Part shown: positions 1,404 through 62,754 of the stretch, in pieces
How positions within the stretch are numbered: position 1 is the stretch's first letter
Layout: every line of letters begins with the position of its first letter
Origin: an uncultured Chlorobiota bacterium
GTDB lineage: Bacteria; Bacteroidota; Bacteroidia; Bacteroidales; JAADGE01
Assembly (NCBI GenBank): GCA_947311445.1
Contig: CAMZKV010000008.1
Span: forward strand, 5,145 to 69,144
Reading direction: 5' to 3'
Length of the DNA stretch: 64,000 bases
The notes under the pieces: generated by a model
Told to the model about the DNA's origin: nothing
Databases searched by the model: none
Seen by the model: the letters and a program-made list of their open reading frames with translations, nothing else
Made by a program: the position numbers and the translations under genes

Positions 1404-1518
1404 TTATTTGCAAAAATAAGTTTATTCAGAAATAAAAAAAGATTTTTGTAAATAAAACAAAATTACATTTTATTTGTAAAATCTTTCATTCATTCTTTTT
1501 CGTGTCCGGAAAGTTTGA

Positions 1519-1618
1519 TTTATTAAGAGGAGTGAAGAGAACAGGCTCTGAGAAACTCCGGCAACCCCTTTTCTAAAGAGGAAGGTGCCAATACCTGCCC
1601 GATTTTGGGAATAATAAT
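1519..1618 (+). promoter_or_regulatory. SAM-I (S-box) riboswitch upstream of metH
   Basis: P1 is ttatta (1520-1525) / taataa (1612-1617). P2 is ggagt/actcc with GA-rich K-turn-like internal loop. Conserved ccggcaacc junction, P3 ccuuuu/gaggaagg, conserved ggtgccaatacctgc, and P4 ccc-gatttt-ggg. It sits 16 nt upstream of the metH ATG. Confidence 0.78.
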
Positions 1619-1633
1619 TTAACTTAAAAAATT

Positions 1634-4600
1634 ATGAAAAATTCAAACAAACTATATACAGCCCTAAAAAATAGAGTACTCGTTCTTGATGGTGCAATGG
1701 GAAGCCTTATTCAAACACACAAATTAGATGAAGCAGGTTTTCGTGGAGAAAGATTTAAAAATTGGCAGCTTGATTTAAAAGGCAACAATGACCTTCTTTC
1801 GTTAACTCAGCCACAAATTATAAAATCAATTCACACACAATATCTTGAAGCTGGTGCAGATATTATTGAAACTAACACCTTCAATGCAAACTTAATCTCA
1901 ATGGAAGATTATGATATGCACCAATACAAGCTGGTTTATGAAATGAACCTAAAATCTGCACAAATTGCCCGGGCTGTCTGTGATAAATTTTATGAAAAAA
2001 ATAAAAACAAATTTCGCTTTGTTGCAGGCTCAATTGGCCCAACAAATAAAACAGCATCAATGTCGCCAGATGTTGAAGACCCAGGCAAACGTGCAGTAAC
2101 TTTCGATGATGTTGTTGCAAGTTACACTCCACAAATAAAAGGTTTGCTCGATGGCGGTGCAGATATAATTCTTATTGAAACAGTTTTTGACACACTAATT
2201 GCAAAAGCTGCACTTTTTACAGTGCAAAAAGAAGCAAAAGAACGAAATATAACTATTCCAATTATGGTTTCAGGAACTGTTACCGACAAAAGCGGAAGAA
2301 CACTTTCCGGACAAACCGTAGGAGCATTTATAAGTTCTCTTTCGCATGTAGATTTGCTAACAATTGGGCTAAATTGCTCAACAGGAGCATCGGATATGCT
2401 ACCTCATATTGCCGAAATGTCAGAAAAATCTAACTTTAAAATTTCAGCACACCCAAATGCAGGAATGCCAAACCAGTTTGGAGAATATGATGAAACACCC
2501 AAAAAAATGGCTGTGGAAGTTAAGCAGTTTTTAGATAATTCTTATGTTAATATTATTGGAGGTTGTTGCGGAACCACACCGGAACATATTCACGAAATTG
2601 CAAAAATTGCCGAGAAATCTCATATTCATAAAGTTTCAGAAAAAGAAATAAAAAGTAAACTTAGCGGTTTAGAACTTTTAGAAATTAGTAAAGAAAATAA
2701 TTTTATAAATATTGGTGAACGCACAAATGTTGCAGGCTCATTAAAATTTGCAAGATTAATAAGAGAAAAAAAGTATGAAGAAGCACTAACTATTGCTAGG
2801 CAACAAGTTGAAAATGGTGCTCAAATTATTGATGTTTGCATGGACGATGCAATGCTTGACGCAGAAACTGAAATGATAACATTTCTTAACCTTTTAGTTT
2901 CAGAACCGGATATAGCAAAAGTGCCTATTATGATTGATAGTTCGAAGCATAATGTAATTATTGCAGGACTAAAATGTTTGCAAGGCAAAGCAATTGTAAA
3001 TTCCATAAGTTTAAAAGAAGGTGAAGAAACTTTTATTCAACACGCAAAAGAAATTCGCCAATATGGTGCAGCTGCCGTAGTTATGGCTTTTGACGAAAAT
3101 GGACAAGCAGCAACATATCAAGAAAAAATAGACATCTGTAAACGGGCTTATGACATTCTCACACAGAAAGTTAACTACCCACCACAAGATATTATTTTTG
3201 ACCCGAATATACTTACAATTGCAACAGGAATTGAGGAGCATAATAATTATGCTATTGATTTTATTGAAACAGTAAAATGGATTAAAAAACACTTGCCTTA
3301 TGCAAAAGTAAGTGGAGGAATTAGCAATCTATCTTTCTCATTTAGAGGCAATAATATAATTCGAGAAGCAATGCACTCTGTGTTTTTATATCATGCTGTA
3401 AAAGCAGGTTTAGATATGGGAATTGTAAATGCAGGAATGTTACAAATTTATGATGAAATACCGAAAGATTTATTGCAACTTACAGAGGATGTTATTTTTA
3501 ACAAAAGTAAAGATGCCACAGAAAAATTAATTGAATATGCTGAAACAGTAAAAAGTTCAGGAAAAAAAGAAAAAAAAATTGAAGATTGGCGGAAAAACCC
3601 TGTTGATGAGCGATTAAGCTATGCTTTGGTAAAAGGCATTACAGAATTTATTGATGAAGATGTAGAAGAAGCAAGGAAAAATTACAAACAAGCAATTAAT
3701 GTAATTGAGCAACCTTTAATGGCTGGAATGAATAAAGTAGGAAAACTTTTTGGAGATGGAAAAATGTTTCTTCCGCAAGTTGTAAAAAGCGCAAGAGTTA
3801 TGAAAAAAGCTGTTGCAATTCTTTTGCCATATATTGAAGCCGAAAAAGTTGAGGGAGAAAATAGTTCTGCCGGAAAAATTCTTTTGGCAACCGTTAAAGG
3901 CGATGTTCATGATATTGGGAAAAACATTACAGCTGTAATTTTAGCATGCAACAATTTTGAAATTATTGATTTGGGTGTTATGGTACATACCGAAAAAATA
4001 CTGGAAGAGGCTGAAAAACAAGATGTTGACATAATCGGTTTAAGCGGACTTATTACACCATCTTTGGAAGAAATGGTAAATGTTGCCAAAGAAATGCAAA
4101 AGCGAAAAATGAAAATGCCTCTGCTAATTGGAGGGGCAACAACTTCAAAAATTCACACTGCCGTGAAAATTGCACCGGAATATGATGGTGCTTCGATTTA
4201 TGTTGTAGATGCATCACAATCTGTGGGAATTACACAAAAACTAATTCAAAATAAAGATAATTTTATTGAAAATTTGAATGCAGAATATGAAAAAGTAAGA
4301 GAAAAACACGCTAACAAAAAAACAAAAAAATTAATTTCCTTGTCGGAAGCAAGAGAAAATAAATTTGTTACAAATTATAAAATTTCAAAACCTAACTTTA
4401 TAGGAATAAAAACTTTAAAAAATTTTCCTCTTGAAGAAATTTTACCATATTTCGATTGGACATTCTTTTTTCATGCTTGGGAAATAAAAGGAAGATTTCC
4501 TGAGATAACAGACCCTGCGGGTTTCCAAAACCCGCAGGGTCTGTCAGATGAAGACAGTCAAAACCCGCAGGGTCTTTCCCAAAAAGCAAAAGAAGCAAAA

Positions 4601-5368
4601 AAACTCTACGATGATGCACAAGAGATGCTAAAAAAAATAATTTCTAAAAAATGGCTTCAAGCAAATGCCGTAATAGGATTGTTTCCTGCAAACTCTGTTG
4701 GTGATGATATTGAAGTTTTTAATGAAGAAGGAAAAAAACTTACAACTTTTAGATTTTTAAGACAACAAAACAAAAAACAAAATAATAAACCCAACTTATG
4801 TCTTGCAGATTATATTGCTCCCAAAACAAGCAAAAAGCAAGATTACATAGGCACATTTGCCTTAACAACAGGACTTGGAATTGAGAAAAAGGTAAAAGAA
4901 TTTGAAGATGCAAATGATGATTATTCTGCAATAATGCTAAAAACTTTGGCAGATAGATTTGCAGAGGCTTTTGCCGAATTATTGCATAAAAAAGTTAGGA
5001 ATGAGTTTTGGGCTTATGCAGAAGAAGACCCTGCGGGTTTTAAAAACCCGCAGGGTCTGGCAGACTTATTTAAAGGAAAATATCAAGGAATACGCCCAGC
5101 AATTGGCTATCCTGCTTGTCCGGAGCATTCTGAAAAACGAGTTTTATTTGATTTATTAAATGCCGAAAAAAACACAGGAATGAGCCTAACAGAAAATTTT
5201 TCAATGTATCCGGGAGCATCAGTAAGTGGACTTTATTTAGCAAATTCTGAAGCAAAATATTTTAACTTAGGAAAAATTACAGAAGAACAAATTGAGGATT
5301 ATGCTGAAAGAAAAAAAATTAGCTTTGAACTTGCAGAAAAGTATTTGAGGAGCAATTTAGGATATTAA
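1634..5368 (+). CDS. metH: cobalamin-dependent methionine synthase
   Basis: 1244 aa with full MetH architecture: Hcy-binding (GGCCGTTP), pterin-binding, B12-binding (GDVHDIGKN), and activation domain ([14 protein letters not shown]). Confidence 0.95.
4509..4575. repeat. GC-rich palindromic element inside metH CDS (two arms plus an extra third arm)
   Basis: cagaccctgcgggttt (4509-4524), loop cca, aaacccgcagggtctg (4528-4543). Then a small hairpin ctgtc-agatgaa-gacag (4541-4557), then a repeated arm aaacccgcagggtct (4561-4575). Confidence 0.9.
5026..5058. repeat. second copy of the same palindrome inside metH CDS
   Basis: agaccctgcgggtttt (5026-5041), a, aaaacccgcagggtct (5043-5058). This is a 33-nt near-perfect palindrome in the same codon phase as the first copy. 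Confidence 0.9.
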
Positions 5369-5436: not shown

Positions 5437-6393
5437 ATGAAACTAGTTGACAAACTAAAAGATACAAAAAAAACATACTTTTCTTTTGAAATTTTACCGC
5501 CAATGAAGGGCGGAAGTATGGAGGATATATATAGTGTTATTGATCCATTAATGGACTTTGACCCAATGAATATTAATGTAACATATCATCAGCAAGAAGT
5601 TGTTTATAAAAAAAATAAACATGGTGTTATAGAAAGAAAAACAATAAGAAAACGCCCGGGAACAGTTGCTATTTCTGCGGCAATAAAATATCGTTACCAA
5701 AAGCCAATTGTTGTTCCGCATTTAATTTGTGGAGGATTTACAAAAGATGAAACAGAAGATGCATTAATAGATTTAAATTTTCTTGGAATGACAAATATTC
5801 TTGTTTTACGAGGCGACCCTCCGGCAAATCATAAATATTTTAGGGCAGAAACAGACGGGCATGTTCATACAAGTGGACTTATAAAACAAATTATGCACAT
5901 GAACCAAGGGCGTTATTGTGATGAAAGTTTGCACAATATTAGAAAAACAAATTTTTCCGTAGGAGTTGCCGGTTACCCCGAAAAACATAACGAAGCACCA
6001 AATATTAAGTCGGACATAAAATATTTAAAACAAAAAATAGATGCAGGAGCAGAATATATAGTTACGCAAATGTTTTTTGATAATCAAAAATATTATGATT
6101 TTGTAAAACTATGTAGAAACGAGGGAATAGAAGTTCCAGTTATACCGGGAATAAAACCAGTAAGAACAAAAAGAGATTTAGAACTTCTTCCTCAAGTTTT
6201 TAATATTGATTTACCGGAAGAACTCGCTTCTGAAGTAGTAAAAGCAAAAAATAATAAAGAGGTAAATGAAATAGGAATTGAATGGACAATAAAACAGTCT
6301 AAAGAATTAATAAAATTTGGAGTACCAGCAGTTCATTATTATACAATAGGAAAATCCGATAATATAAAAAATATTGCGAAATCAGTTTTTTAG
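5437..6393 (+). CDS. metF: 5,10-methylenetetrahydrofolate reductase
   Basis: 318 aa; FSFEILPP N-terminus and YIVTQMFFD motif typical of MetF. Lies immediately downstream of metH. Confidence 0.88.
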   Translation: MKLVDKLKDTKKTYFSFEILPPMKGGSMEDIYSVIDPLMDFDPMNINVTYHQQEVVYKKNKHGVIERKTIRKRPGTVAISAAIKYRYQKPIVVPHLICGGFTKDETEDALIDLNFLGMTNILVLRGDPPANHKYFRAETDGHVHTSGLIKQIMHMNQGRYCDESLHNIRKTNFSVGVAGYPEKHNEAPNIKSDIKYLKQKIDAGAEYIVTQMFFDNQKYYDFVKLCRNEGIEVPVIPGIKPVRTKRDLELLPQVFNIDLPEELASEVVKAKNNKEVNEIGIEWTIKQSKELIKFGVPAVHYYTIGKSDNIKNIAKSVF

Positions 6394-17736: not shown

Positions 17737-18525
17737 ATGAATAAAAATATAATAATAACATTCTTACTTTTTATTTTTTCTTTGGTATTAATTTCTGGAA
17801 AAATTTTAAAAAAAGAAGAAACAGCTTTTAAATATAAAATAAATGATTCAACAGAAATTGTTGTTAATAAAGTTCTTGATTTAAAATCAGAAGTTTCTTT
17901 GTATTATTACAGTAAAATGAATATACCTGCCTGTAACACAGGAGAATGTATGTTGATGAACATAACAATGTATTGGGATGCATATGGAAATTATTTCAAA
18001 TATGAAGTTCCTCAAAACTTTCCTTTAACAAAATGCAACCATAAAAAATTTAAGAAAAAAGATTATGTTAAATTACATAAAATATTGAATAATCCTAACT
18101 CAAAATACAGTAAATTCACAATAGAAAATTTAACAGAAAAACAGGCACAAAACAAATATAAGACAGATGCAACATCTGGCTCTACAATTAAATTGGTTTT
18201 TGATTCAGAAAGGATTAAAGGTGCAGTTAAAACAACACATACATTGTGGCATATTGCTAATGGAAGGATAAATAAAATATTGAAAAATAAAACAGGAGAA
18301 GTAAAAGTTTCAGACTTTACAAATAAAGAGTTTTTTATTTCTTATGAAATAAACAAAAAAGAAACGAATATTTTTGATACAGATTTTATAAATAAAATTG
18401 AAAAACAAATATCAAAGAAGAACATGAATAAATCAATATTAATTAGCAATTATCTAATTAGAAATAATATAAAATCAAAAAAGAGCAATAAATTTTTAAA
18501 ACAAATTAAATTTTTAAAAAAATAA
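17737..18525 (+). CDS. hypothetical secreted protein
   Basis: The ATG at 17737 gives signal peptide MNKNIIITFLLFIFSLVLISG. The longer track ORF (17626) overlaps the convergent-start neighbour and is rejected. Confidence 0.45.
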   Translation: MNKNIIITFLLFIFSLVLISGKILKKEETAFKYKINDSTEIVVNKVLDLKSEVSLYYYSKMNIPACNTGECMLMNITMYWDAYGNYFKYEVPQNFPLTKCNHKKFKKKDYVKLHKILNNPNSKYSKFTIENLTEKQAQNKYKTDATSGSTIKLVFDSERIKGAVKTTHTLWHIANGRINKILKNKTGEVKVSDFTNKEFFISYEINKKETNIFDTDFINKIEKQISKKNMNKSILISNYLIRNNIKSKKSNKFLKQIKFLKK

Positions 18526-18526
18526 A

Positions 18527-18686
18527 AAGAAGAAACATTCTTGACAACTAGGAACATGACTATAAACTTGCACACAGGTAATTTGCAGAACAAAACAATA
18601 TTTGTAAATATAAAAACACAATAAACTTATAAATATAAATTAACTTTTAACTTTACATTTTCAAACTTTTAACTATTTTTAGACAC
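18527..18686 (+). repeat. conserved upstream module, copy E (most diverged)
   Basis: aggaacatgactataaacttgcacacaggtaatttgcagaacaaaacaa (from 18550) aligns with copies A-D. The 3' part aaattaacttttaactttacattttcaaacttttaactatttttagacacATG aligns with copy A. Confidence 0.7.
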
Positions 18687-20642
18687 ATGAAAAAATTATA
18701 TATTTTTGCACTTATATTATTTGCAGTAAGCACTGTAAATGCTCAAAAACACCTTCACAATAAATGTTTAGAAGGAAAAATATCATTGAATAAAGATCTT
18801 TTTTCTTTTGACGAGTCAAAATATCAAGAAAAATCAAGTTTTTCCTATGACGTAAAATATTATAGATTAAACCTATTATTTGAAGACATAGATAATAAAT
18901 ACGTTGCAGGAGAAGTTACAACATATTTTGAAACAAAAACTACAGGGTTTAATCAAATAAGTTTTGACTTAGCAGGTAATATAAATGTAGATTCAGTTAT
19001 TTTTAGACAAAATAAAATACCCATGTCTTCAATAACTCACATATCTGACGAATTAACAATTAATCTTCCGACAACAATAGCAAATGGAACCATAGATTCA
19101 ATATCTGTTTTTTATCAAGGTATTCCTGATCCTTCCGGGGGTTTTGGTTCTTTTATTCAAGACTCTCATAACGAAACTCCAATTATTTGGACTCTTTCAG
19201 AGCCATATGGAGCAAAAGATTGGTGGCCATGCAAACAAAGTCTAAATGACAAAGCAGACTCAATAGATGTTTATGTTACAAACGAAGATGTGTATAAAGC
19301 TGCAAGTAACGGACTATTAATTTCTGAAACAACACAAAGCGGTATGAAAACTGCACATTGGAAACATAAGCACCCGATTACAGCATATCTTGTTGCTGTT
19401 GCAGTAACAAACTATTCAACATATTCTGATAATGTTACATTAACAACAGGGCAAAATGTTGAAGTTTTAAACTATGTTTATCCGGAAGATTTGTCTTATG
19501 CACAAAATAATACACCCAATGTCTTAGATGTTATTCAATTATACAGCGACCTTTTTATACCCTATCCTTTTTATAATGAAAAATATGGACATGCCCAATT
19601 TGGATGGGGTGGAGGAATGGAACATCAAACAATGAGTTTTATGGTAAGTTTTGGACATGGTTTAATGGCTCATGAACTTGCACACCAATGGTTTGGTGAT
19701 TTTGTTACATGCGGATCTTGGGCTCATATATGGCTAAACGAAGGGTTTGCAACATATCTTGACGGAATGACACATGAGCATAACTTAAGCGGAGGTGACG
19801 ATTTTGACTCATGGAAATCAGACAGAATAAACTATGTTGTATCACAGCCAGGAGGGTCTGTTTGGGTTGATGACACAACAAGTGTAAATAGAATTTTTAA
19901 CGGAAGACTTTCGTATTATAAAGGAGCATTAGTTCTTCATATGTTAAGAAAAACTGTAGGAGATGACGCATTTTTTCAAGGTCTTCAAAATTATTTAACA
20001 GATCCAAATATTGCAAATGGATATGCAATGACATCTGACTTACAAGCACACATTGAAGCAACATACGGAAGTTCTCTCGAGTATTATTTTGATGATTGGT
20101 TTTATGGAGAAGGTTATCCAATTTATAATATAGCATACTCGCAAAACACACCCGGAAATATTAATATTAAAATTAATCAGTCTCAGTCTGATAGTTCGGT
20201 AGATTTTTTTGAAATGAAGGTGCCTGTAAAATTTCATGGAGCAACGCAAGATTCCGTTATATGGTTTGATAACACATCAAATGGGCAACAATATATTGTA
20301 AATCTTGGGTTTACGGTAACATCTGTCGAGTTTGACCCAAATAATGACATTGTTTCTACAGGAACAACGGTTTTAAAAGTTGGTACATTAAAAGACGGAA
20401 TAAGGTCTTTTATAAGTCCAAATCCCGCAAACGAAGAAATAAAAGTGAATTTCATTGAAAAAATTAAACCTGAAAAGGTGAATATAATTGACTATACCGG
20501 AAGAATTATTAAATCTTTTGAAGAAGAAAATAACGCATCATATATCTTTAAATATGATATAAAAGATTTACCGCGAGGACTATATTTTATTTCTTTTAAA
20601 CAAGAAGGAAAAACAGTTAGTAAAAAGTTTATAAAAAACTAA
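18687..20642 (+). CDS. M1 family zinc aminopeptidase with T9SS C-terminal sorting domain
   Basis: HELAHQWFGD plus WLNEGFATY (HExxH-18-E), a signal peptide, and a C-terminal approx. 80 aa Por-tail pattern (SPNPANEEIKV...GLYFISF...KKFIKN). Confidence 0.85.
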   Translation: MKKLYIFALILFAVSTVNAQKHLHNKCLEGKISLNKDLFSFDESKYQEKSSFSYDVKYYRLNLLFEDIDNKYVAGEVTTYFETKTTGFNQISFDLAGNINVDSVIFRQNKIPMSSITHISDELTINLPTTIANGTIDSISVFYQGIPDPSGGFGSFIQDSHNETPIIWTLSEPYGAKDWWPCKQSLNDKADSIDVYVTNEDVYKAASNGLLISETTQSGMKTAHWKHKHPITAYLVAVAVTNYSTYSDNVTLTTGQNVEVLNYVYPEDLSYAQNNTPNVLDVIQLYSDLFIPYPFYNEKYGHAQFGWGGGMEHQTMSFMVSFGHGLMAHELAHQWFGDFVTCGSWAHIWLNEGFATYLDGMTHEHNLSGGDDFDSWKSDRINYVVSQPGGSVWVDDTTSVNRIFNGRLSYYKGALVLHMLRKTVGDDAFFQGLQNYLTDPNIANGYAMTSDLQAHIEATYGSSLEYYFDDWFYGEGYPIYNIAYSQNTPGNINIKINQSQSDSSVDFFEMKVPVKFHGATQDSVIWFDNTSNGQQYIVNLGFTVTSVEFDPNNDIVSTGTTVLKVGTLKDGIRSFISPNPANEEIKVNFIEKIKPEKVNIIDYTGRIIKSFEEENNASYIFKYDIKDLPRGLYFISFKQEGKTVSKKFIKN

Positions 20643-25288: not shown

Positions 25289-26671
25289 CTATTTGTCAGA
25301 ACTAAACATTGGATCCCATGGCGGTAATAAAATAGGTTTTTGATTTAAAAAATTTAATGTTTTAGCATCTATAAATTTTTTCAAAACTACAAGGCGAAAC
25401 ATATATTCATCAAACCAAGCATCCGTCATTGTCAGATAACCATTGTGTCCGGAAGATTTACCCCAACTATTTTCAAGTAACCATTTGGTAATTTCTCCTT
25501 TTTCATTAACATCTGCACCAACTAAAGCCATTCCATGTGTTGAACCACTTTCACGAGATAAAATGCGTTCTCTCTTTGTCATATCAAATTTAACGCCAAA
25601 AAGTGATTCGTAGTCATAATTATTAATATCTAACAAACCTTCTTTACTGTTTAGTTGTTTTCCAACATCGCAAGAAAAATACATTGCTTCATTATTTTTG
25701 ATAGACTTGAGAGCAAATTTTTTGATTTCTTTTGCAGGTAAATTAATATACTGCCAGTTTCTTCCCTCCATTACATTTCTATCTTTATTGATTTCATACA
25801 GTTTATAATATTCTCTTGTCGGGTCATCCATTAACATGATATAATCATTGAAATTTATTTCTCCTATTGATTCTTTCATAAAAGATTTTGGGGTGTATTT
25901 TTTAAGAGAACTTATACTGTCTTTTTTGTCTTTATATCTCCATTCAAACTCTGTTGGGGGAACACCAAGATTGATTACTAATATTTTATATATTTCTCCC
26001 AACATTTTTATTTTATGTTTTCTTAAAACGGCATCTGTGCCTTTTATAGAACGTAATTCAAGAGCATCTTCTCTCAATTTTTTTCTAATAAGACGAACCA
26101 TCATTCCAGTGTTTTCGCTAGAATGAGTTTCGGGCATAATATCTTTCGGAACAATTCCATATTTGTTTGCTAAATTTATGAAAGAGTTCCATACGCCACC
26201 ATCCCCAATAGTGTTTTGGAACAACCAAGAAACATTTCTGTCTTCAATTTTTAAATTTCTAGTTTCAATAATTCCTTCAAGAAACATGTTTGATTTTTCA
26301 AAAATATCAAAGAAATATAAATAGTTTGTAGAATATTCAAAAGATGAAACATTGAAGTTTGAAATAGCTTTTGGTCTAAGAACGTTGAGGCTTGTAAACA
26401 TCCAACATCTGCCGGAAGACTTTTGGTTGGTTATTCCCTTTACTGATACTTTGTATTTGAATTCGTGGTCGTATTTACCAATATTATTTCTATTAAGAGC
26501 CAGGTTTTTTATGTTGTTATTTGAAACAGCATTTATAACTGCTCTTAGTTGTGAATCATTATTGTCAAAAGAATTTTTTATTTGAACGAATTCTCTTTTG
26601 CCTATTCCTTTTTGTCCTGTTACAGAAAGAGAAAAAAGAATTATAATCAAAATTACTATTATTTTGTTCAT
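25289..26671 (-). CDS. pepC: C1B family cysteine aminopeptidase (PepC/bleomycin hydrolase-like), exported
   Basis: QKSSGRCWMFTSLN catalytic Cys block, THGMALVG His block, ENSWG Asn block. The start is set at the ATG at 26671, which begins a signal peptide (MNKIIVILIIILFSLSVTGQ). Confidence 0.82.
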   Translation of the reverse strand: MNKIIVILIIILFSLSVTGQKGIGKREFVQIKNSFDNNDSQLRAVINAVSNNNIKNLALNRNNIGKYDHEFKYKVSVKGITNQKSSGRCWMFTSLNVLRPKAISNFNVSSFEYSTNYLYFFDIFEKSNMFLEGIIETRNLKIEDRNVSWLFQNTIGDGGVWNSFINLANKYGIVPKDIMPETHSSENTGMMVRLIRKKLREDALELRSIKGTDAVLRKHKIKMLGEIYKILVINLGVPPTEFEWRYKDKKDSISSLKKYTPKSFMKESIGEINFNDYIMLMDDPTREYYKLYEINKDRNVMEGRNWQYINLPAKEIKKFALKSIKNNEAMYFSCDVGKQLNSKEGLLDINNYDYESLFGVKFDMTKRERILSRESGSTHGMALVGADVNEKGEITKWLLENSWGKSSGHNGYLTMTDAWFDEYMFRLVVLKKFIDAKTLNFLNQKPILLPPWDPMFSSDK

Positions 26672-26843
26672 ATGTCTAAAGTTGTATATTTGATTGATAT
26701 TTAATGAGTTGACAGAATATTTATATTTGCAAAAGTTGTTTTGCTTAGTACATAGTAACACCACTTTGTCTTGCAAGTAATCTGTATGTTCTGTTATGGT
26801 TAAGCTCAAGGCTGTTAAAATTTTTGTCTTGTTTGTTTCATAG
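26672..26843 (-). repeat. conserved upstream module, copy B
   Basis: The minus strand reads ctatgaaacaaacaagacaaaaatttt...ccataacagaacatacagattacttgcaagacaaagtggtgttactatgtactaag...actttagacatATG, which aligns with copies A, C, D and E. Confidence 0.7.
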
Positions 26844-26952
26844 AAAGAATCTTTTAGTTTAAAAAAATTTAAATTATATGTGTGTTTAAAAATATTAAAG
26901 CTGTTCTTAAAAACGAACAGCTCTAATACTTGGTTTTATATAATGTTAAAAA

Positions 26953-30431: not shown

Positions 30432-30468
30432 AAACACCGATATAATATGGTTTTTATGATGCAAGAAT

Positions 30469-31197
30469 TTAAAAATTTAAATTTCGAATATCTAATAAAA
30501 CATCTCTGAAACTATCATAATTTTGGATTATTTTTAAAAGATTAATTGCAGTTTCTTCCGGACTTGAAAGTTTGTTGTTTTTCTTTAAATCAACAAACTT
30601 TTTAAGTTCAGAAAAATCATTAACAGAAGATGTTCTAATTTGATTCTGCATAGCCGTATCAACAACACCTGGAGCAACAGAAAATATGTTAATTCTATTC
30701 AATTTAGGGTAAAAAGATTGTTCAAGATTTATATTTTCACTAAACATATCTAATGCAGATTTGGATGCACAATAAACACTCCACGCATCAATAGTATGCC
30801 TTCCTGCTCCGGAACTAACATTTAATATTATTCGTTTGTTTGTGTAAGGTTGATATTTTTTAATAAAATTATTTATTAAAATACTTGGAGAAAGAATATT
30901 CACATTATAATCATTAATTATTTCTGTGGTTTTTAACTTTCCAACTCTTTTTATTTTAGAAATAACTCCCGAATTATTGATTAAAATAATATCACTTGCA
31001 TTTTCAATGTTAGGAAAAAATATACTTTCAGTATCTTCTAAATTAGATAAGTCTGTTGTTATATGATTATAGTTTTTATGATTTAATGTGTTTTTTCTGG
31101 AAATGCCAATAACTTTATTGTTTTCGTCTTTAAGAAGTTCTTCTGCCAAAGATTTTCCAATTCCTTTGCTTGTGCCTGTAATAAAATAATGTTTCAT
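30469..31197 (-). CDS. short-chain dehydrogenase/reductase (SDR)
   Basis: TGTSKGIGK, NNSG, YCASKSAL (YxxxK), APGVVDT. Confidence 0.8.
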   Translation of the reverse strand: MKHYFITGTSKGIGKSLAEELLKDENNKVIGISRKNTLNHKNYNHITTDLSNLEDTESIFFPNIENASDIILINNSGVISKIKRVGKLKTTEIINDYNVNILSPSILINNFIKKYQPYTNKRIILNVSSGAGRHTIDAWSVYCASKSALDMFSENINLEQSFYPKLNRINIFSVAPGVVDTAMQNQIRTSSVNDFSELKKFVDLKKNNKLSSPEETAINLLKIIQNYDSFRDVLLDIRNLNF

Positions 31198-31367
31198 GTT
31201 TCTAAAAAAGTTAAAAATTTGAAAGTGAAAAGTGAAAAGTTAATTTACACTTGTAATTTTTTAAGCACTGCACATAGGAACACTTGTTTTTTCTGCAAGT
31301 AATATGTGCGCAGGCTGATAGTCATGTCCTTGGGTGTAAAAATATTTGTTGTGGGAGTTTTGCATAG
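31198..31367 (-). repeat. conserved upstream module, copy A
   Basis: The minus strand reads ctatgcaaaactcccacaacaaatatttttacacccaaggacatgactatcagcctgcgcacatattacttgcagaaaaaacaagtgttcctatgtgcag...aaattaacttttcacttttcactttcaaatttttaacttttttagaaacATG. Confidence 0.75.
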
Positions 31368-31567
31368 CTGAGCCTTTGGGTTCAAGAGTCTAATTTGTTG
31401 GGCTTAATTTGTTGCCGAAATGTTTGACTTTATAATAGCTGGGTTTTGGTTTTAAAAAAACGACAAATATAACACAATTTATAGGGCAATTTAATATTTT
31501 TACAAAAAGGATTGCTTGGTTAAATAGTTTTTGCGAATCTATGAGACAAATACTATTTAGTTTTTAT

Positions 31568-40272: not shown

Positions 40273-40428
40273 AGTTTACAAAAATAATTAAAAAATCTCG
40301 GAAAAATAATTCAACTAAACATTCAACAAAACTTATTTTTAAGTATTTGAATATTAGTTAATTATAGCATTAGAATTGTTTTTAGGATTTGCAACTATAT
40401 TAAATATTAAAAAAAAACAGTACTTTGT

Positions 40429-40461
40429 TTTGCATAGTACTTAACGTTTTTCATATCTTTG
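40429..40461 (+). promoter_or_regulatory. Bacteroidota-type promoter (-33 TTTG / -7 TAnnTTTG)
   Basis: TTTG at 40429-40432 and TATCTTTG at 40454-40461 with 21-nt spacing; 30 nt upstream of the ATG at 40492. Confidence 0.5.
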
Positions 40462-40491
40462 TATTGTTAAATATTATATAAAACTTAAAAA

Positions 40492-41007
40492 ATGGAAAAA
40501 ATAACAACACTAAGCATCAACCATACAGAATATAAATTTATGGAATCTGCCCACCAAATGCTCTCAGATTATAATAGTTTTCTTAAAAGGACAATAAAGG
40601 ATAAAAACAGATTAAATGATATTGAAATTCAAATTTCTGTTCTGTTAGATTTAGAAATTGAAAACAAAGGAGGTGATAAGATTGTAACAGAAGAAGTTTT
40701 AATAGAGGTTATTTCAGTTTTAAAAGATAATCAGAAAATTTATTATCGACCACAAAAAAGAAGAAAACCTGTTTCTGAACAATATAAAAAACAGAATAAA
40801 AAGAAAAGAAAAAACAGAACTTTTAAGCTGAGAAGAGATTCTGAAAACAATATTCTCGGGGGTGTTTGTTCTGGAATTGAAAAAAGAATAGGCATTAATA
40901 CTGTATTACTTCGGGTTTTATTTATAGCAGGAGCATTTTTTAAAGGTTTTATGATTCCGGCATATATAGTTTTATGGATAATAATACCTTCTGATAAAAA
41001 TAATTAA
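40492..41007 (+). CDS. PspC domain-containing membrane protein
   Basis: C-terminal NNILGGVCSGIEKRIGINTVLLRVLFI...IVLWIIIP is the PspC motif, preceded by a K/R-rich linker. Confidence 0.7.
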   Translation: MEKITTLSINHTEYKFMESAHQMLSDYNSFLKRTIKDKNRLNDIEIQISVLLDLEIENKGGDKIVTEEVLIEVISVLKDNQKIYYRPQKRRKPVSEQYKKQNKKKRKNRTFKLRRDSENNILGGVCSGIEKRIGINTVLLRVLFIAGAFFKGFMIPAYIVLWIIIPSDKNN

Positions 41008-41050
41008 GCCACAATAATTAAACTTGAGAAAAAAAATAAAATTTATACAA

Positions 41051-41211
41051 ATGAAACACCCACGACAAATATCTTACACCAAAGATAACCCTGTATACCG
41101 TTGCCTTGCAGAAAAAAGCAAGTGTTCCTATGTGCAGAATAACACATTTATTATAAATACAAAAATTAAAGTAACTAACTCAATGTAAATTAATTAGAAA
41201 ATTTTAGACAC
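41051..41211 (+). repeat. conserved upstream module, copy C
   Basis: atgaaacacccacgacaaatatcttacaccaaagataaccctgtataccgttgccttgcagaaaaaagcaagtgttcctatgtgcag...gtaaattaattagaaaattttagacacATG. Differs from copy A by a single 1-nt indel across the cttgcag...tgtgcag block. Confidence 0.75.
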
Positions 41212-41547
41212 ATGAAAACAGAAAATGTAAAAGCTCAAATGAGAAAAGGTGTTCTTGAATTTTGCACACTATCAATACTATCCGGAGGATATGCATATAC
41301 TTCTGACATTATTAAAGAACTTAAAGAAGCAGAGTTGATTATAGTTGAAGGAACACTTTACCCACTACTAACGAGACAAAAAAATGCAGGTCTTTTAAGT
41401 TATAAATGGGAAGAATCAACACAAGGACCTCCTCGAAAATATTATATTTTAACAGAAAAAGGAGAGTCTGTTTTAAAAGAGTTAGATAATTCTTGGAATA
41501 ATTTAACCCATTCTGTTGAAAAGATAAGAAAAACAAAACGAGGATAA
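41212..41547 (+). CDS. PadR family transcriptional regulator
   Basis: 111 aa; winged-helix blocks LEFCTLSIL, GTLYPLLTRQKNAGLL, PRKYYILTEKG. Confidence 0.85.
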   Translation: MKTENVKAQMRKGVLEFCTLSILSGGYAYTSDIIKELKEAELIIVEGTLYPLLTRQKNAGLLSYKWEESTQGPPRKYYILTEKGESVLKELDNSWNNLTHSVEKIRKTKRG

Positions 41548-41588: not shown

Positions 41589-42233
41589 ATGAAAAAAGCA
41601 ATAAGAATTCACATTACAGGATATATTTTTAACATTGAAGAAGATGCATATGTTCTTCTTGAAAAATGGCTTGATGATGTTTTAAATCAATATGAAGAAG
41701 AAGAAGACGGAGAAGAAATTTTTAAAGATATTGAAATGCGTGTTGCAGAATTATTTCATGCAAAAGTTGGAAAAGAAGGAGTTGTTTCTTTGGCAGAAGT
41801 TAATGGAGTTATTAAAACAATGGGACAACCCGAAGAATTTGAAGATATAGAAAATGCGAAACAAAAACCGTCAAAACAAGAGAGAAATTTTTCTGAAAAA
41901 AACAGAAAAAGCAAAAGACTGAGACGTTTTTATCGAGACGAAGAAAACAATATACTAGGGGGTGTTTGTATTGGTGCCGGACATTATCTTGGAATTGATC
42001 CGGTTTTAATAAGGTTGGGGTTTATTTTGGCAACAGTTCTTGCCGGATTTGGTCCAATAGTATATCTTGTTCTTTGGATTGTTACTCCAAAAGCCAAAAC
42101 AGTATCGCAAAAATTGGAAATGAAAGGAGAACCTGTAAACATAAACAATATTGAAAAAGCCATAAAAGAGGAAATAGAGTATGTTAAGGAAAAATTTATT
42201 AGACAAAAAAAACATGAAAATAAACGACATTAA
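41589..42233 (+). CDS. PspC domain-containing membrane protein
   Basis: ENNILGGVCIGAGHYLGIDPVLIRLGFIL...LVLWIVTPKA. The N-terminal domain is paralogous to that of 40492..41007. Confidence 0.75.
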   Translation: MKKAIRIHITGYIFNIEEDAYVLLEKWLDDVLNQYEEEEDGEEIFKDIEMRVAELFHAKVGKEGVVSLAEVNGVIKTMGQPEEFEDIENAKQKPSKQERNFSEKNRKSKRLRRFYRDEENNILGGVCIGAGHYLGIDPVLIRLGFILATVLAGFGPIVYLVLWIVTPKAKTVSQKLEMKGEPVNINNIEKAIKEEIEYVKEKFIRQKKHENKRH

Positions 42234-43913: not shown

Positions 43914-43937
43914 ATAAACATTTTAACATACAATATT

Positions 43938-44867
43938 ATGGCAACAACTCAACAAATTTTCAAAACCAAAGATAATAAAGATATAACTTATTTTAAATAT
44001 GTTCCTGAAGGTGATAAAAAAGCTATAATAATAATAACACACGGAATGGCAGAACATGCTAAACGTTATGATACCTTTGCTAAATTTCTTAATAAAAATG
44101 GTTATATTGTTTATGCTCACGACCAAAGAGGACATGGAAAAACTGCAGGAAGTGTTGATAAACTAGGTTTTTTTGCAGAAAAAGGAGGATGGCAAAAAGT
44201 AACAGACGATTTAGCTACACTTGTTGAAATTGCAAAAAAAGATTATCCTGAATATCCTGTGTTTTTATTTGGACACAGTATGGGCTCTTTTATAACACGA
44301 ACCTATCTGATTGAAAATTCTAATAAAGTTAAAGGAGCAATCCTTTCGGGCACTGCCGGAAGTGCAGGTCTTCTGGGAAAAATTGGTTTGTTATTAACTC
44401 GAATAATAATGTTATTTCATAAAAAAAACACACCGAGTCCGCTAATGGACAAACTTTCTTTTGGAGATTTTAACAAAGCCTTTAAACCAAATAGGACTGC
44501 TTTTGATTGGTTAAGTAGAGATAATGCACAGGTTGATAAATACATTAACGATGAATATTGCGGAACAGTTTTTTCTGTTGGTTTTTTTAATGATATGATG
44601 AAAGGACTTGAACTAGTAAACAGAAAAGACACAGCAAAAAAATTAAGGAACAATCTTGCTGTTTACTTATTCTCTGGCGATAAAGACCCTGTTAGTAAGA
44701 ACGGTAAACAAGTAAAAGACGTTTTTGAAATGTATAAAACTGCCGGAATATCTAATATTCAACTAAAACTATATGAAAATGCAAGGCATGAAACTTTAAA
44801 CGAAACAAATAAAGATGAGGTTTTTAATGATGTTTTGTCTTGGTTGGATTCAAACTTAGCCTTATAA
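43938..44867 (+). CDS. alpha/beta hydrolase (lysophospholipase / monoacylglycerol lipase-like)
   Basis: HGMAEH, nucleophile elbow GHSMGS, and C-terminal ARHE block. Confidence 0.8.
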   Translation: MATTQQIFKTKDNKDITYFKYVPEGDKKAIIIITHGMAEHAKRYDTFAKFLNKNGYIVYAHDQRGHGKTAGSVDKLGFFAEKGGWQKVTDDLATLVEIAKKDYPEYPVFLFGHSMGSFITRTYLIENSNKVKGAILSGTAGSAGLLGKIGLLLTRIIMLFHKKNTPSPLMDKLSFGDFNKAFKPNRTAFDWLSRDNAQVDKYINDEYCGTVFSVGFFNDMMKGLELVNRKDTAKKLRNNLAVYLFSGDKDPVSKNGKQVKDVFEMYKTAGISNIQLKLYENARHETLNETNKDEVFNDVLSWLDSNLAL

Positions 44868-61285: not shown

Positions 61286-62560
61286 TTATTCTGCATAAAA
61301 AAACAGCATTTCTAAAACAGTTTTATAACAAACAGGGCAAAACTCATCTGTACTGTTTGAACGCATTTTACAATCATGAGTTGGTCTGTATATTTTTTCT
61401 TTTACATAACCAGCTCCTTCAAAAGCACCAATTTTTTTTTCGTAAATTATTGTATCCGGTGTAGGAACCGGGGTGTATTTTCCAACTAAATTTTTCCACT
61501 TTGAATCAAAACCAACAAGATTTGTTATATTTACTTGCCAGGGTTCAACAGACATATTATAAATGTTTTCTGCTTTATCATATCCGTATTGATATTCATC
61601 TGCCAGAGCAGCAAATGCGTGTCCGAATTCGTGTGTAAAAACACGTCCAGAATATTCATTATCTGCGGAGCACAAATTATAATAATTATAAACCCCGCCT
61701 CCTCCATATTTTGAAGTGTTTACAAGAATATAAATTTGGTCGTATGGAACATAAGCCGCAATATTTCTTAGTTCTTCAATATCTTGAGTAGTTAGATAGC
61801 GTTCCCAACCAAATGTGTAAAAGTGAGTATTAATAACAGTATTTTTCCATATACTATCTCCTGGAATATCTGTCCCGGTTTCTTCAGAAATCGCATCTAC
61901 TGCCCAGAAGTTAACTTTGTTTTTATGGATTTTAAATGGCTTAACATCAAAAAAGTATTTTATAAACCGTTTACAATCATTATGGAATTTGGTCATTTCG
62001 TTTTCTGTATATCCGTCGGGAATAATAACAATATCAAGCTTTTTATTGTGATTTCCGGAATAATGTAATTTCTGAGTTTTATATTTTGTTTGTTTGTCTT
62101 TTATTATTGAAATTGAGTTTGGGTCAATTTTAGTTTGAAACAAAGTTTTAAAAACTAGGTTTTTGTTTCTCATTTCTATTTTCAAAATTATTGTGTCTTT
62201 TGGAAAAGGACATATAACAGATTCATAGAAACTTCTTGATGTTGTTTTTGCTTCTTCGGTATTAATCCATTCATAAAAAAGAGAAGAGTAGCCCCTTGAA
62301 TAAATTAATTTTTGACTTTTTGCGTCATAAATTAATACCCTAAAATCACCAAAATTAAATTTGTCAATTAAATTAATTTTTGAGCCTCCCCAAAATGGTT
62401 CTTGTTTGGTTTTGTTATAGAAAACCTTTGTTTCTTTATTGTTTCCTCCAATGTTGTAGTCAAAGCGTAATGATTTGTTAATAAAGAACTTGTCGAACTC
62501 AGTTTGGGCATTAAGTGTGCAGCTGAAAATTACTAATATTATTGAGATGACAGTTTTCAT
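61286..62560 (-). CDS. M64 family (IgA peptidase-like) zinc metallopeptidase, exported
   Basis: Signal peptide; HEFGHAFAALADEY zinc motif. Confidence 0.8.
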   Translation of the reverse strand: MKTVISIILVIFSCTLNAQTEFDKFFINKSLRFDYNIGGNNKETKVFYNKTKQEPFWGGSKINLIDKFNFGDFRVLIYDAKSQKLIYSRGYSSLFYEWINTEEAKTTSRSFYESVICPFPKDTIILKIEMRNKNLVFKTLFQTKIDPNSISIIKDKQTKYKTQKLHYSGNHNKKLDIVIIPDGYTENEMTKFHNDCKRFIKYFFDVKPFKIHKNKVNFWAVDAISEETGTDIPGDSIWKNTVINTHFYTFGWERYLTTQDIEELRNIAAYVPYDQIYILVNTSKYGGGGVYNYYNLCSADNEYSGRVFTHEFGHAFAALADEYQYGYDKAENIYNMSVEPWQVNITNLVGFDSKWKNLVGKYTPVPTPDTIIYEKKIGAFEGAGYVKEKIYRPTHDCKMRSNSTDEFCPVCYKTVLEMLFFYAE

Positions 62561-62725
62561 ATTTATAAAACTTCTAATTATCTTGTAATGAGCAGATTGC
62601 TTTAATGTTTGTGTTTAAAATAATTATGTTGTTCTGCACATATAAAACCTTACTTTGTTCTGAAAGTAATTGGTTTGTGATAATATAGTTATGCCTTAAA
62701 ATGTAATTTTTTTGTTTCTTTTATG
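62561..62725 (-). repeat. conserved upstream module, copy D
   Basis: The minus strand reads cataaaagaaacaaaaaaattacattttaaggcataactatattatcacaaaccaattactttcagaacaaagtaaggttttatatgtgcagaac...gataattagaagttttataaatATG. Confidence 0.7.
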
Positions 62726-62754
62726 CCTAAATTCAAGTATTAAAAAAAATGATT

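Follow-up and report, generated by a model that had tools for sequence, protein, structure and literature searches.

A lineage-restricted family of modules fused to start codons, read as putative mobile promoter-plus-leader cassettes, in an uncultured Chlorobiota bacterium

The intergenic region between pspC1 and padR in the window (the whole 64-kb stretch of contig CAMZKV010000008.1 analysed here, from an uncultured Chlorobiota bacterium whose genome has about 29% G+C and contains T9SS sorting domains) holds one copy of a family of short sequence modules, each of them fused exactly to the start codon of a different gene. Our best reading of this copy, designated copy C, to which we assign a probability of about 0.6 on the strength of sequence comparisons, is that it belongs to a dispersed and recombining family of promoter-plus-leader cassettes. 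These would be of the kind known as putative mobile promoters (PMPs), a category reportedly introduced by Matus-Garcia, Nijveen and van Passel in NAR in 2012. Each cassette would have been inserted directly before the ATG of a gene unrelated to the others, in that gene's orientation, and would carry its own promoter followed by an AT-rich, unstructured leader of about 75 nt and a fixed start context, TTTAGACAC directly followed by ATGAAA.

Five copies of the module, A to E, were located in the window with a profile HMM built from the copies themselves. They are about 165-175 nt long (about 161 nt in copy C), all are co-oriented with the downstream gene and their 3' end falls exactly at the ATG of that gene. 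Copy A (31198-31363, minus strand, E=9e-33) precedes an SDR gene (30469-31197, minus strand) and its likeness to m10, one of the paralogues described below, reaches to about position 31385. Copy B (18523-18686, plus strand, E=2.8e-23), the most diverged one, serves a gene coding for an M1 peptidase with a T9SS tail (18687-20642). Copies D (26672-26842, minus strand, E=1.8e-36) and E (62561-62727, minus strand, E=8.5e-30) precede the genes of a C1-family peptidase (25289-26671) and an M64 peptidase (61286-62560), respectively, and copies E and C share a 100-nt inverted match. Copy C is located on the plus strand between pspC1 (40492-41007; PspC, Pfam PF04024) and padR (41212-41547; Pfam PF03551, E=4.8e-16), the latter being followed by a second PspC gene by Pfam, pspC2 (41589-42233). 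Both pspC1 and padR are on the plus strand. The HMM match (41052-41214, E=1.5e-36) agrees with the span 41051-41211 that a preliminary description of this DNA, made from the sequence alone, had given for this copy. Copy C starts with ATGAAAC and ends with TTTTAGACAC immediately 5' of the padR ATG. Within it, positions 41105-41137 form the core, the most conserved block of the family, and the remaining AT-rich stretch of about 74 nt (41138-41211) is a putative 5' leader, at the end of which is found the start context conserved in the family, TTTTAGACAC directly followed by ATGAAA.

The closest MAG, uncultured Chlorobi bacterium RB_MAG_00012 (GCA_947311255.1), adds at least four paralogues: m10, upstream of a small lipoprotein gene, m13, upstream of a PntA gene, m11b, upstream of a GcvT gene, and m05, upstream of a further gene. 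The resulting total of at least nine paralogues is a lower bound that corresponds to about 100 kb of the MAG read. According to Pfam the genes served are non-homologous (SDR, M1, C1 and M64 peptidases, PadR, lipoprotein, PntA and GcvT). Nevertheless, all 13 module sequences collected, from nine loci with orthologous copies included, have one orientation and the exact ATG junction. For the distribution of the family we used a three-block pattern that matched the five window copies and gave 0 matches in shuffled sequences. When one genome per GTDB species was scanned (185,579 species genomes) the pattern was found at 12 loci, only six of which matched the profile, all belonging to RB_MAG_00012, and the remainder were chance matches. 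The same pattern matched 21 loci in the JGI metagenomes, all by chance and none a true copy. The module family is restricted to this lineage.

The copies are also clustered. Five are found within 44 kb of the window (18.5-62.7 kb), m11b lies about 5 kb past the window end, and a single contig of the MAG (CAMZKL010000006.1, 149 kb) carries three of the six pattern matches in that genome. Three Logan contigs (L003, L004 and L038) stop in module leaders, at 24-100 nt before the ATG of padR or of the SDR gene, an assembly break that is expected at a dispersed repeat. Annotators should be aware that the module breaks short-read assemblies and also imitates a small ORF (41024-41188). This ORF of 45-54 codons in copy C is the product of an indel and is not conserved. 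Another small ORF, at the 5' end of the module (MKH-x-RQRF-stop), was rejected as a conserved feature given that it is present in only four to five of the nine copies.

The preliminary description had called attention to the near-identity between the core of copy C and the reverse complement of the core of copy A, upstream of unrelated genes. Direct reading bears this out. Positions 41105-41137 of the plus strand read cttgcagaaaaaaGcaagtgttcctatgtgcag and the reverse complement of 31268-31299 reads cttgcagaaaaaacaagtgttcctatgtgcag; 32 of the 33 positions are the same and one inserted G is the sole difference. A 19-mer common to both, CAAGTGTTCCTATGTGCAG, occurs exactly twice in the window versus 0.01 times expected from shuffles, and Pfam confirms that the genes that follow (SDR and PadR) are unrelated. 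The likeness actually extends beyond these 33 nt since it is part of the module of about 170 nt. The three explanations put forward for it, recent duplication or mobility, gene conversion and strong constraint, are all supported, the first by empty sites in related genomes at loci C, A and D, the second by the mosaic nature of copy A and the wholesale differences between strains at loci A and B, and the third by the conservation of the core and of module C as a whole (see below). As six paralogues have the core at 86-100% identity, the resemblance of A and C is a property of the family, mainly due to constraint acting across all of it. Gene conversion as the only cause was rejected because the same core is present in four other paralogues. 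Purifying selection on the family core, together with ongoing recombination or cassette exchange, would account for the near-identity, rather than RNA base-pairing. The window has GAAAAAAGCAAGTGTTCC in copy C and the sister MAGs have GAACAAAGCAAGTTTTCC at the same place, so that two core positions differ, and with respect to the family consensus GAACAAAGCAAGTGTTCC the window and the MAG versions each deviate, at different sites.

The older gene arrangements could be recovered from relatives at 74-85% protein identity, sampled at three loci. At locus C, relatives with a PadR 81-85% identical have pspC and padR overlapping by 4 nt (ATGA) in six of six contigs versus a gap of 204 nt here, and those contigs keep the same neighbourhood (MORN protein, EpsH-like, DUF2797, PspC, PadR and PspC). 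The PspC1 protein ends here in IPSDKNN, versus IPSDESNIKFRKTASL with the overlapping ATGA in the relatives. The PadR protein was found identical in four contigs. At locus A, the gap between the LPG-synthase and SDR genes is 6-23 nt in relatives with an SDR 74-78% identical, versus 370 nt here and 1355 nt in the MAG. For locus D, the C1-peptidase orthologues of two relatives are without module and one of them has instead a canonical promoter, TTTG-N20-TATGTTTG. No module-like sequence was found at the compared loci of these relatives, and the modules at loci C, A and D are insertions. The statement in the preliminary description that copy C splits a PspC-PadR-PspC cluster is thus literally true, because pspC and padR are coupled in the relatives and the module is absent there; Pfam confirms the identity of the genes. 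The exact 5' junction at locus C could not be defined by alignment to the empty sites, the pspC tail being too diverged. The insertion at this locus would have broken a translationally coupled pspC-padR-pspC operon, and padR-pspC2 would thereby have been given a transcription and translation start of its own.

Some further rearrangement is seen around locus A. The 1355-nt gap of the MAG GCA_947311255.1 (contig L053, 4120-5474) holds two short minus-strand ORFs, one of them with a match to a T9SS sorting domain. They appear to be remnants of a degraded gene, and the LPG-synthase/SDR junction would therefore be an insertion hot spot. The relatives are colinear for the genes coding for an FHA protein, LPG-synthase, SDR, alpha/beta-hydrolase, a GAF protein and signal peptidase II. 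Here 12.7 kb separate the SDR gene and the hydrolase gene (43938-44867, plus strand), whose relative orientation is inverted, and flipping a segment of about 13.5 kb with ends at about 30440-30468 and 43914-43937, which holds copies A and C, would restore their adjacency.

Conservation within the module is uneven. Averaged over all pairs of the nine paralogues, the core is 77% identical, the leader 65% and the upstream part 55%, and column conservation goes from 0.53-0.80 in the upstream part to 0.87-0.90 in the core and 0.94 at the ATG junction. Comparing the window with the MAGs, module C is 96-97% identical and gap-free, whereas the two neighbouring intergenic regions are only 77-79% identical with many gaps, which indicates that constraint acts on the module over its full length. 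Loci C, D and E have remained stable, most of their segments being 94-97% identical (88% in the leader of E). Loci A and B differ wholesale between strains that are otherwise about 95-98% identical. The copy at locus A in both MAGs is 57%, 63% and 39% identical to that of the window over its three segments, the SDR proteins being 95% identical. At locus B the flanks are about 95-97% identical on both sides, as far as the module boundary on one and from CACATGAAAAAA on in the other, and the module between these conserved flanks has been rebuilt, the MAG version being without the -7-like part of the core. Moreover, copy A is itself a mosaic, with a core 100% identical to that of m05, a leader 74% identical to that of B (45-56% to those of the other paralogues) and an upstream part nearest to m10. 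From this strain-level replacement and the mosaic copy, recombination or cassette exchange among the copies appears to be ongoing. Upstream of module A, a 28-nt island (CCCTATAAATTgTgTTATATTTGTCGT, 31455-31482, minus strand; contig L039, about 570-597) with a canonical TATATTTG -7 box is kept between window and MAGs, the rest of that intergenic region being unalignable. This island is likely an independent canonical promoter that feeds through module A.

Several lines of evidence point to a promoter inside the module. Copies D and m11b begin about 10-55 nt past terminator-like hairpins; the one that copy D directly follows, agagctgttc...gaacagcttt, is at about 26896-26923 of the minus strand. 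Paralogue m13 is located in a divergent intergenic region. Furthermore, at four of the five window copies no canonical TAnnTTTG box was detected on the forward strand in or just before the module; such boxes are found 5-53 nt before many other genes of the window and also before a tRNA and pspC1. Together with the T9SS domains, this usage is in keeping with a Bacteroidota or Chlorobi-group organism. We therefore infer that the module must hold a promoter. Both by its geometry and by its conservation, the best candidate would be the conserved core, TTG-N19/20-TATGTGCA. In copy C it has a promoter-like -33/-7 arrangement, with TTG at 41106-41108, a 20-nt spacer and TATGTGCA at 41129-41136. The distance from TTG to the box is N19 in A and N20 in C, within the criterion of 17-23 nt, TTG is present in seven of the nine paralogues, and the core is located about 75 nt 5' of the ATG. 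Decayed or altered cores are those of A in the MAGs and of B, and both loci have other possible sources of transcription (the conserved TATATTTG island upstream of A and a close co-directional upstream gene at B), which fits the promoter role.

The core does not look like a standard promoter, though. Bacteroidota sigma-A promoters have a -33 TTG and a -7 TAnnTTTG (PMC6847099, PMC9723704), and six positions of this box are near-invariant and, in F. johnsoniae, G is almost never found at the n positions (PMC6847099). The core is similar to them in having TTG, 19-20 nt and TAnnT, but TATGTGCA has only three of the six near-invariant positions, lacks the TTTG half and has a G at a disfavoured n position, so it is not a standard housekeeping promoter. 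This suggests that it would be used via an alternative sigma factor or would depend on a regulator bound over the core. In addition, the spacer is as conserved as the hexamer-like parts, something that a plain promoter does not need and that counts against this assignment. Most copies have in their 5' half a second promoter-like element, TTG-N17-TATAA(C), that fits the looser variant described for Chlorobaculum, TTG-N17-23-TA[ATC][ATC][AT]T (bioRxiv 10.1101/172254). It could be an alternative start point and, if real, would place the core within the transcript, where it could act as RNA. As for the leader, A/T-rich unstructured sequences favour initiation without a Shine-Dalgarno in Bacteroidota (PMC6847099), and the predicted module leader, A/T-rich, unstructured and with a fixed junction, matches this description, although with about 75 nt it is longer than the Bacteroidota medians of 24-32 nt (PMC9723704). 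Other promoter types were rejected: the GG-N10-GC spacing of sigma-54 fits neither strand, the GAAC of the ECF-type GAAC-N16-(C/T)GT is not conserved among copies, and an E. coli-type scan gave chance-level matches only, none of them within the module.

The conservation of the core spacer beyond the requirements of a simple promoter would also be accounted for if the module were transcribed and regulated its gene in cis as an RNA, be it a riboswitch-like leader or the alternative-pairing switch suggested in the preliminary description, with the core acting as RNA. Transcription would then begin no further downstream than the 5' half, and the ATGTG of the core could, for example, pair with CACAT and mask the start codon. 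The TTG-N17-TATAA(C) element and the canonical island upstream of A would either of them put the core in a 5' UTR, and the pairings noted do exist, with TATGTGCAG facing an upstream GCACATA (A) or CTGTATA (C) and ATGTG facing the CACAT at the start codon, complementarities that are seen in several copies. However, those of A and C are short and within chance or consensus conservation, and the structural analyses gave no signal, which makes this alternative improbable. RNAalifold found 0 consensus pairs in 12 sequences, and folding energy was not different from that of shuffles (z = -1.10 for copy C and +0.68 for m13). Compensatory changes were counted in four helices (TATGTGCAG with the upstream arm in two registers, ATGTG/CACAT and a CTTGC/GCAAG hairpin), and three of them had zero double changes; the single one, in the copy-A register, is no more than shuffles give, and no measure rose above the shuffle controls. 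In six of the 12 sequences one position of the ATGTG/CACAT helix does not pair. Rfam at the gathering threshold gave for the whole window only a SAM riboswitch and a tRNA, elsewhere than the module, and at E<=10 the region 40950-41300 matched only a snoRNA, by chance. The genes served have no common ligand logic either. The proposed switch is thus not supported, and the covariation expected for one or the other pairing in further copies (12 sequences, nine paralogues) did not appear beyond shuffle level, although with about nine paralogues some weak RNA structure may be present. The same excess conservation could be attributed to protein binding. PadR-family operators have the consensus ATGT-N8-ACAT, and the main role of the core could be to serve a single regulator as its operator, perhaps the PadR whose gene follows copy C, in which case the modules would make up a regulon and the promoter would be incidental. 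This palindrome starts in the core of E (TATGTGCAGAACAACATA) and of m10, and nearly in that of C, and peptide and amino-acid catabolism is represented among the module genes (three peptidases, GcvT and PntA). We consider it highly improbable, given that only about three of the nine paralogues have the complete palindrome and that A, D, m05 and m11b lack it, that the homology extends over 170 nt, more than a site, and that the conserved block before the ancestral pspC-padR promoter (ACTACTTTGTTATGCATAGT...) is unlike the core. A PadR operator derived from that ancestral pspC promoter was also sought in the core and no resemblance was found. The pspC1 promoter region itself (40420-40470; about 1925-1975 in contigs L044-L048) has ACTACTTTGTTATGCATAGTTCT and then TATCTTTG, kept in all relatives, and this block beside a canonical -7 box is a candidate operator of the neighbouring PadR.

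A family of several copies confined to one lineage, relatives with empty sites and short-read assemblies that break within the module would equally be expected of a selfish miniature mobile element or passive repeat with no regulatory role, whose position at gene starts would reflect only an insertion-site preference. The ends of the module could be taken in the same sense. ATGAA(A/C) is found as a direct repeat, a possible trace of target-site duplication, at both ends in four to six of the nine copies (the 5' ATGAAAC belongs to the shared module sequence), m13 has a 77-nt partial older copy exactly 171 nt upstream, a tandem partial duplication, and an ATGAAA start is present in eight of the nine module genes versus nine of 47 other genes (p about 1e-5). 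A longer terminal direct repeat is significant in m13 only, and the ancestral padR and SDR genes had the ATGAAA start already, before the module. Against a passive repeat, no terminal inverted repeats were found around the modules at C, A and m13, and the 13 sequences keep without exception their orientation and the exact ATG junction. In three cases the copy comes after a terminator or within a divergent intergenic region, positions at which the downstream gene requires a promoter. Between strains the complete module has changed much less than the intergenic DNA beside it, and the decaying copies are those with an alternative source of transcription. Altogether, we regard a selfish element or passive repeat with no regulatory role as quite improbable.

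If the modules are promoter-plus-leader cassettes, they might have spread by repeated gene conversion, by site-specific recombination or through microhomology at ATGAA(A). The 64-kb window was found to contain no gene for a transposase, an integrase or a sigma factor. A more specific possibility, which we put forward only tentatively, is that they represent an undescribed protein-less mobile promoter-plus-leader cassette that docks at ATGAA(A) starts without inverted termini, enters coupled operons, stacks in tandem at the same ATG (as in m13) and is exchanged between loci as a unit. Such docking would imply either a dedicated recombinase acting in trans or a microhomology or template-switch process centred on the start codon. 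Provided that the cassette is an active promoter, locus C would illustrate cleanly how regulation can be rewired in nature when a promoter is reused: an operon coupled in all relatives compared would have been cut by an insertion of about 200 nt and its regulator gene placed under a new, shared control, the same control region that heads peptidase, glycine-cleavage and transhydrogenase genes. The start-codon fusion, the empty sites and the replacement at the strain level make the mechanism of spread, which is the main question about mobile promoters, experimentally approachable.

Other elements were observed in the window. A full-length SAM riboswitch (1517-1620, plus strand, 84.5 bits) is located directly upstream of metH (1634-5368, plus strand) and metF (MTHFR, 5437-6393). 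The metH gene contains two GC-rich near-perfect palindromes, AGACCCTGCGGGTTT(CC/TA)AAAACCCGCAGGGTCT, at 4509-4548 and 5026-5064, plus a half copy near 4561-4576, in a genome of 29% G+C. Both keep the reading frame and fall within the part coding for the B12-dependent methionine synthase activation domain. Their appearance is that of a palindromic repeat element that has entered the coding sequence, and they recall the Rickettsia palindromic elements.

Some known systems are comparable to the modules. The invertons of Bacteroides are promoter-carrying invertible segments of about 200 bp bounded by inverted repeats. The modules resemble them in size and putative promoter content and in that one conserved sequence recurs before diverse loci, in the same phylum-level group, but we rejected this identity because they have no flanking inverted repeats and are found in one orientation in three genomes, the window and two MAGs coinciding at all five loci. 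Promoter-bearing MITEs have defined target duplications (TA for Correia elements) and are found in both orientations, whereas the module has a single orientation and abuts the ATG. Such MITEs, among them the Neisseria Correia elements, ERIC and REPIN (as cited in PMC3575422), which can supply promoters and rewire neighbouring genes, are short, non-coding, multi-copy and lineage-restricted like the modules. They have, however, terminal inverted repeats or palindromic structure, and the module has neither inverted termini nor a stable hairpin.

The closest parallel is with PMPs. According to PMC3575422 they are recognised by a stretch of 50 nt or more, located within -150 to -50 of the start codons of different genes of one genome, with an identity of at least 80%. 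Six pairs of paralogues pass this threshold, for example copy C of the window with m10 (58 nt at 90%) and m13 with m05 (70 nt at 91%); the pair A-C by itself has 33 nt at 97%. As in PMPs, similar upstream sequences are found before non-homologous genes with no known IS or Rfam link. PMPs are a computational category, mostly pairs, without defined boundaries or mechanism. The module family, on the contrary, has at least nine copies with defined ends, each fused exactly to a start codon, and shows empty sites at three loci, a split operon and cassette-like replacement between close strains. By this operational definition the family belongs with the PMPs, and what is unusual in it is the strict fusion to the start codon and the insertion into operons.
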